From positions 1 to 59,029 of the forward strand of contig BTVY01000047.1 in assembly GCA_045863335.1 (NCBI GenBank): a stretch of 59,029 nucleotides of DNA. Direction: 5' to 3'. Positions 52,552-55,266 of this stretch are shown piece by piece (within the stretch, counting starts at the first letter, position 1; the number at the start of each line of letters is the position of its first letter). The notes beneath the pieces were generated by a model. It was not told the DNA's origin. It worked only from the letters and a program-made list of their open reading frames with translations, and ran no database searches. Source of the stretch: Candidatus Hydrogenedentota bacterium (GTDB lineage Bacteria; Hydrogenedentota; Hydrogenedentia; Hydrogenedentales; SLHB01). The position numbers and the translations under genes are program-made.

Positions 52552-54450
52552 TCATCCGGTGAGGCCCGAGGCGGTCACTACGAGATCCAGGAACTCCCGA
52601 CGCTCTTGTTCGTGGCGTTGGGTAACACAGCCCAATGCCCACGCATACACCGTGTCGTATCCGATGTCATCGTTGGGGGCGTTGCCGCGGAGGAGCATGG
52701 CGAAAGCGGCGACGGCCGTCGCAAAACGAAAGTCGGCGGAGGCGTGTTCGAATGCGCCGCGGGAATCGAACACCGGCGTCTCAAGCAACTGGCTGCGGGT
52801 CGCGCTCGGCGTCTTGTAACGCAGCTTCAGGTTAAGGAGTTCGCCCGATTGGGCCGCCGCGCTGGCTCGCGGCCGCGTCTGATAGCGAAGTGGATCGACC
52901 GTCCCCGCGGACTCGCGGTATCCGGCGGGTACCACTTCGTAGAGCGCGGTGACCGTGTGCCCGGCGCCGATTTCGCCGGCGTCTTTCGCGTCGTCGTTGA
53001 AGTCTTCCCGCGCAAGCATACGGTTCTCGTAACCGATGAGCCGATACGACTCCACTTCCGCTGGATTGAATTCGATCTGGATCTTGACGTCTTTCGCAAT
53101 GGTCACGAGATTCGCGATCATCCTGGCGCCGAAGATGCGCTTCGCTTCGTCAAAACTGTCGATGTAGCCGTAGTTTCCGTTGCCTTTGTCGGCGAGTTGT
53201 TCGAGGGTGCCGTCTTTGATGTTTCCAAAACCGAACCCGAGCGTGGTCAGAAAGACGCCCTCTTTCGCGCGCTCCTCGATAAATCGGATCAGCTCGCCGC
53301 GATCGGTTATGCCCACATTAAAATCGCCGTCGGTGGCGATGATGACGCGGTTGACGGCGCCGTCGCGGAAGTTCGCGCGGGCGATGTCGTAGGCAAGATG
53401 GATGCCTTGGCCACCGTTCGTCGAACCGCCGGCTTCCAGCCGCTCGATAGCGTCCAGTATGACGCGCTTGTTTGCGCATGACGTGGAGGGCAGCACGGTC
53501 CCGGCTGCTCCCGCGTACACGCAGAGTGCGACGCGGTCGCGTTCGTCCAGCTGCTTGACCAGGTACTGCAACGAGCGCTTCACGAGCGGCAGTTTGTTGG
53601 ACGGCTGCATGGACCCGGATACGTCGATGAGAAACACGAGGTTGCAGGGCGGCCGCTCGTCTTCCGGCGGCTCGTAGCCGCGCAGGCCAATGCGCACGAG
53701 CCGGTGCTTGGGCTGCCATGGCACAGACGCCACGTCCACGTTCACCGAGAACGGCGCGTCGGAATCCGGCACGGGATAGTCGTAGGTGAAATAGTTGATG
53801 AACTCCTCGATGCGAACGGAATCGCGCGGCGGGCACACGCCCATTTGCAGCATGCGCCGCACGTTCGTGTAAGAGGCCGTATCCACGTCGATGGAAAACG
53901 TCGAGACGGGTTGATCCGCGACAAGCCGGAAGGGGTTGTCATCGTAATGGTCGTACTGCTCCGTGTTGAAAGGGTCCCAGCCGCTTCCGATGGGCGCTAC
54001 CGCATCGGGCATGACCGGCTGAGTGATGTGCATATAGACTCTGGACGCAGGCTGCGGCGGTTGGGGCGGCGCATTCACGATGATCGTGTTGTTCACAACA
54101 GGTTGTGAAGCACTCGCCCAGTTCCGGCGGGGCGCACTTTCGGATTGAGCCATCGCTGACCCAGCAGGATTGTTGATGTCGGTAATGAGAAACCGCTCGA
54201 CGCCTTCACGAAGGCGAAATAGCGTGTACTGCGGCGCGTGGCCCTCGGCTTTGTCAATCAGGGTCTGCCGCAGCGTCGCGGCGTCGCCTTGTGGTTGCAG
54301 AGGTAAGTTGCTTGGAAGGTCTGAGTGCCGGTACACCAATGCGATCGCAGCAGCGACAATAGCGAGAGAAAGAAAAGCAAGGCGCGGTACGTGCCGAGTC
54401 CCTTTCTTCCGCGGATCCGGCGCGTCCGTGTGTTGATCGGTCGTATCCAT
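52552..54450 (-). CDS. Membrane-anchored YfbK-like vWA protein (vWF_A + VWA + DUF3520)
   Basis: STFSIDVDTASY, VRIEEFINYF, LIDVSGSM, ATDGDFNVG, YRLIGYENR; N-terminal TM helix. Confidence 0.92.
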   Translation of the reverse strand: MDTTDQHTDAPDPRKKGTRHVPRLAFLSLAIVAAAIALVYRHSDLPSNLPLQPQGDAATLRQTLIDKAEGHAPQYTLFRLREGVERFLITDINNPAGSAMAQSESAPRRNWASASQPVVNNTIIVNAPPQPPQPASRVYMHITQPVMPDAVAPIGSGWDPFNTEQYDHYDDNPFRLVADQPVSTFSIDVDTASYTNVRRMLQMGVCPPRDSVRIEEFINYFTYDYPVPDSDAPFSVNVDVASVPWQPKHRLVRIGLRGYEPPEDERPPCNLVFLIDVSGSMQPSNKLPLVKRSLQYLVKQLDERDRVALCVYAGAAGTVLPSTSCANKRVILDAIERLEAGGSTNGGQGIHLAYDIARANFRDGAVNRVIIATDGDFNVGITDRGELIRFIEERAKEGVFLTTLGFGFGNIKDGTLEQLADKGNGNYGYIDSFDEAKRIFGARMIANLVTIAKDVKIQIEFNPAEVESYRLIGYENRMLAREDFNDDAKDAGEIGAGHTVTALYEVVPAGYRESAGTVDPLRYQTRPRASAAAQSGELLNLKLRYKTPSATRSQLLETPVFDSRGAFEHASADFRFATAVAAFAMLLRGNAPNDDIGYDTVYAWALGCVTQRHEQERREFLDLVVTASGLTG

Positions 54451-54477
54451 GAGTTTCACTCCTTCACCTATTCGCCC

Positions 54478-55266
54478 TTACGGCGCGCATTCCGAGGGAA
54501 GTCCGGTCGGCAAGGGTCCGAACAGTTCCGCCGAGACCGAGGTCACAGGAAACGTGGGGTCGGGATTCTCGGGCTCGTAAGGCCGGAACTCGACATGGCC
54601 ATCCATAAAGAGCACGTTTGCACCAAAAGGCCGATGCGCGATCTGCGACGTGTCGAGCGACAGCCGATCCCAGAGGACCACGCCCGAACCCGAGGGGCCG
54701 TTCAGCAGATCCAGCGCGTAGGGCAGTGGCGATTGCACGTCGACGTCGCGGTCGATCGCCCAGTCGCCGCGCATCAACGCATCGTGAAGCGTGACCGCAT
54801 CGTAGTCGTCGCGAAGCGAGAACCCTGTGTACACGTAGTACCGTGACGAAACACAATCTGGACGTTGTTCACCGGATCGCCGCGATTCAAAACGATGTAC
54901 CGCGGAGTCCGGGTGACTCGGGCAAACGAAGATGTCTAAGTCGGTGCAGTACTCGGGGTAGAACGCCTCCATGTCCGGCACCCAATTCCTTGGGACCGGA
55001 CTCAGAGCGGGCCACCGTTCCCCCGGCGCTTCATGGGCAAACATCTTGAACGCCAGCCCCAACTGTTTCAGGTTGGTTTGGCAACTCGCGCGTTGCCGCG
55101 ATTCTCCCGCCACCTTCACGGCGGGAAACACCAGGATTGCCAACAGACAGATCAACGCCGCGCCCAAAAGCAGCTCGGCTAAAGTGACGATACGGCCTCG
55201 TTGGGAGTCTGGCGTAAGTCGTTGTTCGCGAGGCGCTCCGTTCGGTAGTTCGGTTGTCTCGTCCAT
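54478..55266 (-). CDS. DUF1559-like protein with a degenerate prepilin N-terminus
   Basis: [50 protein letters not shown]. Confidence 0.85.
   Translation of the reverse strand: MDETTELPNGAPREQRLTPDSQRGRIVTLAELLLGAALICLLAILVFPAVKVAGESRQRASCQTNLKQLGLAFKMFAHEAPGERWPALSPVPRNWVPDMEAFYPEYCTDLDIFVCPSHPDSAVHRFESRRSGEQRPDCVSSRYYVYTGFSLRDDYDAVTLHDALMRGDWAIDRDVDVQSPLPYALDLLNGPSGSGVVLWDRLSLDTSQIAHRPFGANVLFMDGHVEFRPYEPENPDPTFPVTSVSAELFGPLPTGLPSECAP

Follow-up and report, generated by a model that had tools for sequence, protein, structure and literature searches.

How can a protein domain do without the most conserved block of its family, and why should that same block stand, isolated, in the protein encoded next to it? 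The question is raised by two minus-strand genes (52552..55335) in a 59,029-nucleotide (nt) stretch of DNA from a Candidatus Hydrogenedentota bacterium (contig BTVY01000047.1), the whole of which we call the window. ORF3, the third DUF1559 open reading frame (ORF) of the window, lacks the LREG[IV]ER[YF] signature block that both canonical DUF1559 proteins there contain, and a YfbK-like von Willebrand factor A (vWA) protein, encoded on the same strand after a gap of 27 nt, holds the block in its stalk. The answer we favour, at a probability of roughly 0.55, is that the DUF1559 peptide of the vWA stalk is supplied in trans and tethers the two membrane proteins by way of the motif-less ORF3 domain. 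The features concerned are these, with vWA residue numbers following the 635-amino-acid (aa) form of the protein (GTG start at 54459, ORF 52552..54459).

54478..55266, minus strand: ORF3, motif-less DUF1559/H-X9-DG protein of 262 aa, probable start ATG at 55266 with GGAGG 8 nt upstream.
54676..54747, minus strand: site of the missing motif in ORF3, DVDVQSPLPY followed directly by ALDLLNGPSGSGVV, the gap falling after domain residue Y136.
52552..54450, minus strand: YfbK-like vWA protein of 632 aa, probable start ATG at 54450 with AAGGAG 8 nt upstream; the database protein P0001 starts at the equivalent ATG.
54331..54381, minus strand: transmembrane helix LAFLSLAIVAAAIALVY (residues 27-43) in the vWA protein, identified in its translated sequence.
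54244..54288, minus strand: stalk helix GDAATLRQTLIDKAE, residues 58-72, with the tightest modelled ORF3 contacts.
54139..54225, minus strand: isolated DUF1559 signature motif, residues 79-107, a profile match to DUF1559.
3561..4622, minus strand: canonical prepilin-type DUF1559/H-X9-DG protein, motif in cis at nt 3786-3860.
49771..50958, minus strand: second canonical DUF1559/H-X9-DG protein, motif in cis at nt 49993-50067.

In both canonical proteins the block sits about 70-90 residues before the C-terminus, where the preliminary description of this DNA had read it. It is the most conserved block of the DUF1559 family, with E257, G258, E260, R261 and T265 to A271 invariant among 55 aligned sequences. 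Both proteins match N_methyl and DUF1559 in Pfam and H-X9-DG in NCBIfam, the PF07963/TIGR02532 matches lying at about 1e-9 to 1e-11. Because the prepilin motif of 49771..50958 begins at residue 66 of the ORF, its true start is probably internal.

ORF3 reads as about 25 cytoplasmic residues, one N-terminal transmembrane helix and a periplasmic DUF1559-like domain ending ...VSAELFGPLPTGLPSECAP. Its frame is open to 55335, and the length of 262 aa matches the database copies P0065 and P0067. It scores 32.9 bits against PF07596 (cut-off 23.3) and 21.8 bits against TIGR04294 (cut-off 19); no match to PF07963 or TIGR02532 was found at E up to 0.01, and the N-terminus, which reads RGRIVTLAELLLG, has neither a G-1 before a hydrophobic residue nor an E+5 in register. 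Among the orthologues P0065-P0075, PF07963 is present in none, ten match PF07596 only and P0074 has no Pfam match. Profile-profile alignment of the ORF3 subfamily with canonical DUF1559 by hhalign ran over the full length (probability 100, E 2.3e-59, 198 columns), and the gap in the subfamily falls exactly at the canonical signature block, in agreement with the earlier claim that this ORF lacks the motif. The stretch just before the gap is strongly conserved among orthologues, and at the motif position itself ORF3 reads PLPYALDLLNGPSGSG.

The vWA protein consists of a short basic cytoplasmic tail, one transmembrane helix, the stalk, and then vWF_A (164-256), VWA (273-443) and YfbK_C (450-631), with scores of 134.7 bits for PF12450, 75.4 bits for PF00092 and 229 bits for PF12034, all three in order and above cut-offs; its hydrophobic segment is aligned in 7 of 7 vWA rows. 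Alignment of seven motif-bearing vWA proteins with the 55 canonical DUF1559 sequences gave a probability of 98.7 and an E-value of 3.6e-16 over 41 columns only, stalk segment 70-110 pairing with DUF1559 profile columns 237-277, the region of the ORF3 subfamily gap. Eight residues (G86, R89, F90, T93, D94, I95, N96 and N97) are invariant in these seven proteins, which come from four lineages and whose stalks are otherwise unalignable. Mean identity to the window protein, calculated per segment for nine vWA proteins of 52-100% identity, was 0.77 for the motif (79-107), 0.54 for the preceding helix (58-72), 0.31-0.41 for the stalk flanks and 0.74 for the vWA core; within the helix, L63, R64, Q65 and L67 are conserved at 0.7-0.9 in the same nine. 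Given this E-value and a motif identity far above that of the flanks, the match of the stalk motif to the DUF1559 block is more than chance, and the vWA neighbour does carry the motif, as first described.

The arrangement recurs beyond the source genome. The same two-gene order is found in two genomes of the same genus, G003 and G005, where protein identities of the pair are 91-96% (vWA orthologues, 96% and 94%, respectively). Each of the five closest database vWA orthologues (71-96% identity) also matches an ORF3 orthologue (60-86%) in contig size and source, as follows (vWA protein first).

P0001 and P0066: 7714, ncbi.
P0182 and P0067: 8467, ncbi.
P0183 and P0070: 16435, ena.
P0184 and P0072 plus P0074: 14990, ncbi.
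P0007 and P0071: 3342, ena.

Stalk helix and motif are both kept in P0183, P0184 and P0007, and the motif is kept in orthologues at 71-75% identity. The database record of P0182, a G003-like orthologue, starts the vWA protein at a Met inside the motif (MAQSESAPRR..., 533 aa; window equivalent, 54138 downwards), an annotation that hides the feature because it leaves out both helices, that of the membrane and that of the stalk, and the greater part of the motif.

Such recurrence bears on the simplest alternative, that the arrangement is an artefact: an assembly chimera, as the preliminary description had itself considered alongside a pairing unique to this genome, a recent gene-conversion patch, or a chance match. 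The window does come from a draft assembly (6.75 Mb, 105 contigs), and nothing else was found in favour of this explanation, which the same-genus genomes, the more distant orthologues and the hhalign E-value together make exceedingly improbable. A recent DNA copy or gene conversion of the motif was rejected, as a blastn search of the entire source genome with the vWA 5' region found no paralogue match better than 83% over 71 nt, in the same range as between paralogues.

We then asked where else the motif is found in isolation. A six-frame scan of the source genome for TDINNP, with one mismatch allowed, gave 44 hits, 36 of them with the extended motif; 34 of these lie in DUF1559-type ORFs, and the remaining two are isolated, one in the vWA protein and the other in a 767-aa protein on contig C53. 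The non-DUF1559 carriers sought by the preliminary description comprise the stalks of YfbK-like vWA proteins in several lineages and a membrane family of about 770 aa with a beta-sandwich ectodomain. Among 30 YfbK-like loci in 26 related genomes, the motif is clear in six and degenerate in two. It was found in none of 80 YfbK-like loci from metagenomes at large, even with a loose pattern, and was accordingly rejected as a feature of the YfbK family. A phmmer search with the 82-aa stalk against 1.84 billion representatives returned 824 proteins at E up to 0.001. Judged by length and by where the match falls, nearly all of the 150 matches listed resemble DUF1559 proteins; the same 150 include one full vWA-type protein (P0187) and the 131-aa P0301, matched over the whole stalk. 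The search thus indicates how large the family is and adds no further context. The notion that the motif is an Asn-Pro self-cleavage site was dropped, because P0007, L015 and P0198 have another residue in place of the Pro (NNA) and because the second Asn is variable in the 770-aa family.

The second isolated carrier is itself half of a gene pair in the source genome.

C53 37039..39342: 767-aa isolated-motif protein (pair, 36296..39342; locus L061:6297-9343).
C53 36296..37042: 248-aa motif-less ORF3 paralogue, 44% identity to ORF3, no N_methyl hit.

The 767-aa gene overlaps the start of the 248-aa gene by 4 nt, and both isolated-motif proteins of the genome adjoin one each of its two ORF3-subfamily genes. 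The 767-aa protein has a signal peptide, a beta-sandwich ectodomain, the isolated motif and three C-terminal helices. It matches no Pfam family and no named Atlas cluster, and Foldseek finds a weak likeness to the ribophorin-I and integrin-leg beta-sandwich (template modelling scores, 0.17-0.29). The motif is the best-conserved block of the 770-aa family; where it falls in the 767-aa protein, the AlphaFold2 (AF2) model has a predicted local distance difference test (pLDDT) of 25-34, which fits a peptide folding on binding.

Across 133 genomes of the order, with ORF3-like genes counted at E up to 1e-30, the 770-aa family occurs in 30 and the ORF3-like subfamily in 29 (both, 26; 770-aa only, 4; ORF3-like only, 3; neither, 100). 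They lie side by side in 24 genomes and are split at contig ends in two more, and the pair is represented in four families of the order; no p-value is given for this co-occurrence, because related genomes do not count as independent. The proposal that motif-less DUF1559 genes accompany isolated-motif carriers therefore holds for two kinds of partner, the vWA protein (source genome, G003 and G005) and the 770-aa protein.

Binding between ORF3 and the vWA protein is predicted by a complex model that pairs the periplasmic part of ORF3 (215 aa; alignment of 19) with vWA residues 44-160 (alignment of 7). The interaction prediction score from aligned errors (ipSAE) was 0.79, 0.73 and 0.76 in three runs (median, 0.76), and the best of three controls scored 0.00; the model thus predicts an interface for the pair, for which the preliminary description had proposed to look. 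Of 80 solved complexes, 58 reach the ipSAE mark, as do 2 of 110 mismatched pairs; these counts are rough, own alignments having been used. The three runs agree in at least 53% of contacts, with a partner pLDDT of at least 46. On the vWA side, the modelled interface comprises residues 48-60, 63-64, 66-68, 70-71, 77-88 and 91, corresponding to the helix GDAATLRQTLIDKA and to QYTLFRLREGVE..L, and expected error is lowest for contacts made by residues 52-67. On the ORF3 side, it includes domain residues 101-116 and 127-136, the latter stretch ending at the gap. Recall of a solved complex is unlikely, because sequence and fold searches found no DUF1559 globular structure in the PDB, where the only matches were to the pilin N-helix. 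In families f10 and f11, the 770-aa protein beside the ORF3-like gene keeps only ETLxRLREGME, the first half of the motif, which matches the modelled use of that half.

We therefore propose the following arrangement. Its sequence anatomy, homology, gap, conservation and synteny are observed and its binding is modelled, whereas the topology of both proteins and any downstream function are inferred. ORF3 and the vWA protein would be two bitopic inner-membrane proteins that probably heterodimerize on the periplasmic face. ORF3 would present a DUF1559 domain, its internal signature block lost, on an uncleaved pilin-like anchor, and the vWA protein would supply the block from a stalk segment, a short amphipathic helix and then the block, that lies 15-65 residues beyond the membrane on the outer side. 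Around its deletion site, the ORF3 domain may provide the surface on which this stalk helix and the leading half of the motif fold, and such fold-on docking would tether the ligand-binding module formed by vWF_A, VWA and YfbK_C to a DUF1559 scaffold. The same logic may apply to the paralogous pair, in which a protein of about 770 aa with the motif in a low-confidence linker is followed by an ORF3-like gene.

The preliminary description had offered two roles for the motif. Completion of the partner in trans is supported in part: the gap, the pairing and the complex model speak for it, whereas only the first half of the motif enters the interface and other carriers are partnerless. Plugging of a vWA adhesin into a pilus-like apparatus finds no support, as ORF3 and its orthologues are without a prepilin signal; both proteins appear to be membrane-anchored, which makes ORF3 unlikely to be a fibre subunit.

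A number of observations weigh against tethering through ORF3. The confident interface consists of the upstream helix and the first half of the motif and does not include ITDINNPAG, the most conserved half. Partner pLDDT was below 50 in two of the three runs, and the modelled ORF3 interface residues are no more conserved than the rest of the domain (0.70 vs 0.74, permutation p 0.86). The model may also reproduce, between two chains, contacts that it learned within single chains of canonical DUF1559 proteins. For the motif in cis, the AF2 model of 3561..4622 (55 sequences; mean pLDDT, 68.3) falls below 50 (258-260 and 262-266). The slot in ORF3 is not empty: the subfamily carries a conserved sequence of its own, PLPYALDMLNGPSGSG, at the motif position, so that a trans peptide may not fill the same site. 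Co-residence of the five metagenomic pairs is read from equal contig size and source only. Around the motif-bearing vWA genes of G039 and G027, no ORF3-like gene was found over a distance of about 6 kb. The protein in G027 (L022) is an anti-sigma fusion behind an extracytoplasmic function (ECF) sigma gene, degenerate motif-like stretches occur in further anti-sigma-vWA fusions behind ECF sigma genes (L006 and L008), and two anti-sigma-vWA proteins (L014 and L023) have a DUF1559-like N-terminal remnant after the membrane helix. The motif must therefore also work without an ORF3-type partner. In G039, the locus (L069:4001-7620) contains two YfbK-like vWA genes in tandem, the first with a membrane helix and the stalk motif and the second lipoprotein-like and without the motif; upstream of them, the opposite strand has a PspA/IM30-like gene.

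Several of these observations would be expected if some third component, shared by all canonical DUF1559 proteins, recognized the motif; it might be a protease or an assembly factor, a metal ion or a polymer of the envelope. The motif would then have been borrowed by the vWA and 770-aa proteins, and the ORF3-like protein would belong to the same complex with the motif docked elsewhere. The partnerless vWA genes of G039 and G027, the anti-sigma fusions, the position of the invariant TDINN core outside the confident interface, and the low confidence in cis of the family's most conserved block, as for a ligand- or partner-binding loop, all fit this explanation. No candidate third partner was found, however, and a shared partner leaves unexplained why the neighbour is precisely the block-less subfamily and why the 770-aa proteins of f10 and f11 have lost the TDINN half yet keep that neighbour; in the complex model, moreover, the first motif half is seated on ORF3. 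We regard a shared partner as unlikely, though it is the likeliest of the alternatives.

The degenerate stretches in L006 and L008 and the DUF1559 N-terminal block retained in L014 and L023 could also be read as traces of decay, the stalk helix and motif being left over from a DUF1559 domain and now serving as a spacer. Repeated fusion of vWA proteins to DUF1559 or pilin parts would be the source of such remnants, and the ORF3 neighbourhood would be inherited, with no peptide-domain interaction. Fusions of this kind exist: P0205 (892 aa) is a whole prepilin-type DUF1559 protein fused in cis to a YfbK-like vWA core, and in P0212 (536 aa) the prepilin N-terminal helix only is fused to such a core. 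Decay would not, however, hold eight residues invariant in four lineages whose flanking sequences can no longer be aligned, nor does it account for the same isolated block being the best-conserved part of the unrelated 770-aa family; its absence from the 80 metagenome YfbK-like genes further indicates a lineage-specific and maintained feature. A decayed remnant is accordingly quite improbable, and docking of the stalk peptide onto ORF3 remains the reading we prefer.

The wider distribution of DUF1559 modules was considered in this light. Few paralogous families of planctomycete-like bacteria are as large as DUF1559/H-X9-DG. The source genome has 37 DUF1559 matches, and in a regular-expression census 7 of its 35 DUF1559-like ORFs are without the motif, ORF3 not being the sole one. 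Another (C6 54675..56686) has a 305-aa frame reading …IPIMFDR…NVLYLDGHVVF and no prepilin motif, belongs to a subfamily other than that of ORF3, and adjoins a canonical motif-bearing DUF1559 gene. In one report (PMC10632474), 68 copies are given for one species, two of them essential, and the open-access papers searched state no function for the family. Four proteins of 450-940 aa (P0002, P0003, P0004 and P0008) contain two to four tandem DUF1559 globular modules, with the motif kept in some modules and degenerate or replaced in others of the same protein; the fold therefore tolerates motif loss.

DUF1559 modules also occur on proteins of other kinds. P0005, P0006 and P0032 are M56/BlaR1-type membrane peptidase proteins (PF05569), the first two ending in a pair of DUF1559 globular modules that lack a pilin helix and the third having one module. 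In the source genome, visual inspection of a translated 1072-aa frame (C39 30994..34209) suggests that a DUF1559 globular module with motif and H-X9-DG forms its C-terminus, after an N-terminus of anti-sigma type, a membrane helix and an extended repetitive region. In relatives, a conserved four-gene cassette (L062:5415-10100, L065:2670-7589, L066:6200-10552 and L068:3218-8680) encodes, in order, an ECF sigma factor (about 200 aa), an anti-sigma-DUF1559 protein (about 330 aa), the isolated-motif protein of about 770 aa and a motif-less ORF3-like DUF1559 protein (about 250 aa). The protein of about 330 aa comprises an anti-sigma N-domain, a membrane helix and a periplasmic DUF1559 domain with the motif in cis, the pilin-like helix serving as membrane anchor of the anti-sigma factor. 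Because DUF1559 modules or the bare motif are found on signalling proteins (anti-sigma factors, M56/BlaR1-like proteins and vWA sensors), the evidence points away from a purely structural 'pseudopilin' reading of the family.

If the tether is real, the most conserved block of the DUF1559 family would be an intermolecular or intramolecular docking peptide, and the natural occurrence of the split domain in two forms makes the hypothesis directly testable. A bolder generalization, which we offer as speculation and think rather improbable, is that the DUF1559 domain consists of a receptor and a peptide that can be parted: the block would act as a ligand able to detach, the motif-less membrane-anchored paralogues would be its dedicated receptors, the receptor would switch between motif donors in the four-gene cassettes, and the window pair would be a sigma-less tether offshoot. 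Were this true, such switching would amount to periplasmic partner-switching control of an ECF sigma factor.

The genes on both sides of the window pair are unrelated to it.

50992..52140: GntR/LacI-like regulator gene, downstream of the pair.
55507..56196: aquaporin-like gene, on the opposite strand, upstream of ORF3.

No sigma-like ORF occurs within 51500-56500, the ORF adjoining the vWA gene upstream being ORF3. A promoter and terminator scan of 52200..55700 gave counts near the shuffled expectation and was uninformative.

A search of the open-access literature, supplements aside, found no description of the motif or of these gene pairs, and no open-access paper was found that treats anti-sigma and YfbK together. 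Compared with canonical DUF1559 (PF07596)/H-X9-DG (TIGR04294) proteins, ORF3 is a full-length homologue without the prepilin signal or the block, and the vWA protein has the block only. The anti-sigma/YfbK-like vWA proteins of relatives (L005, L006, L008, L011, L014, L022 and others) share with the window protein the vWF_A/VWA/YfbK_C core (51-61% identity) and a single-pass, N-in topology, and L022 shares the stalk motif. Unlike them, the window protein has about 25 cytoplasmic residues (about 100 in L022) and no anti-sigma domain, and no sigma gene adjoins it. In the chaperone-usher pili, donor-strand complementation completes an incomplete fold with a peptide from a partner, and modular pilins can mount a vWA module. 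The window pair shares principles only with these pili and with vWA-bearing pilins; folds and machinery are unrelated, and no membership is claimed.

In another system, according to a bioRxiv 2026 preprint (PMC12918778), minor pilins of the PilK family are completed by a C-terminal beta-strand of PilC/PilY1, and GspK of type II secretion has the strand in cis. The differences are several. ORF3 belongs to DUF1559/H-X9-DG and not to PilK/GspK, and is without a prepilin cleavage signal. The donor element of the vWA protein is internal (residues 58-107 of 635), in a stalk beside the membrane and not at the extreme C-terminus, and consists of a helix and roughly a hairpin in place of one terminal strand. 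Both window partners keep membrane anchors, and no fibre genes lie nearby. The ORF3-vWA pair is not to be classed as a member of the PilC/PilY1-PilK system. What the two have in common is a pilin-fold receptor without an element that its homologues hold in cis, a peptide from a neighbour that supplies it (in the window pair, as modelled), and syntenic genes; the PilC/PilY1-PilK case likewise began from structure models.

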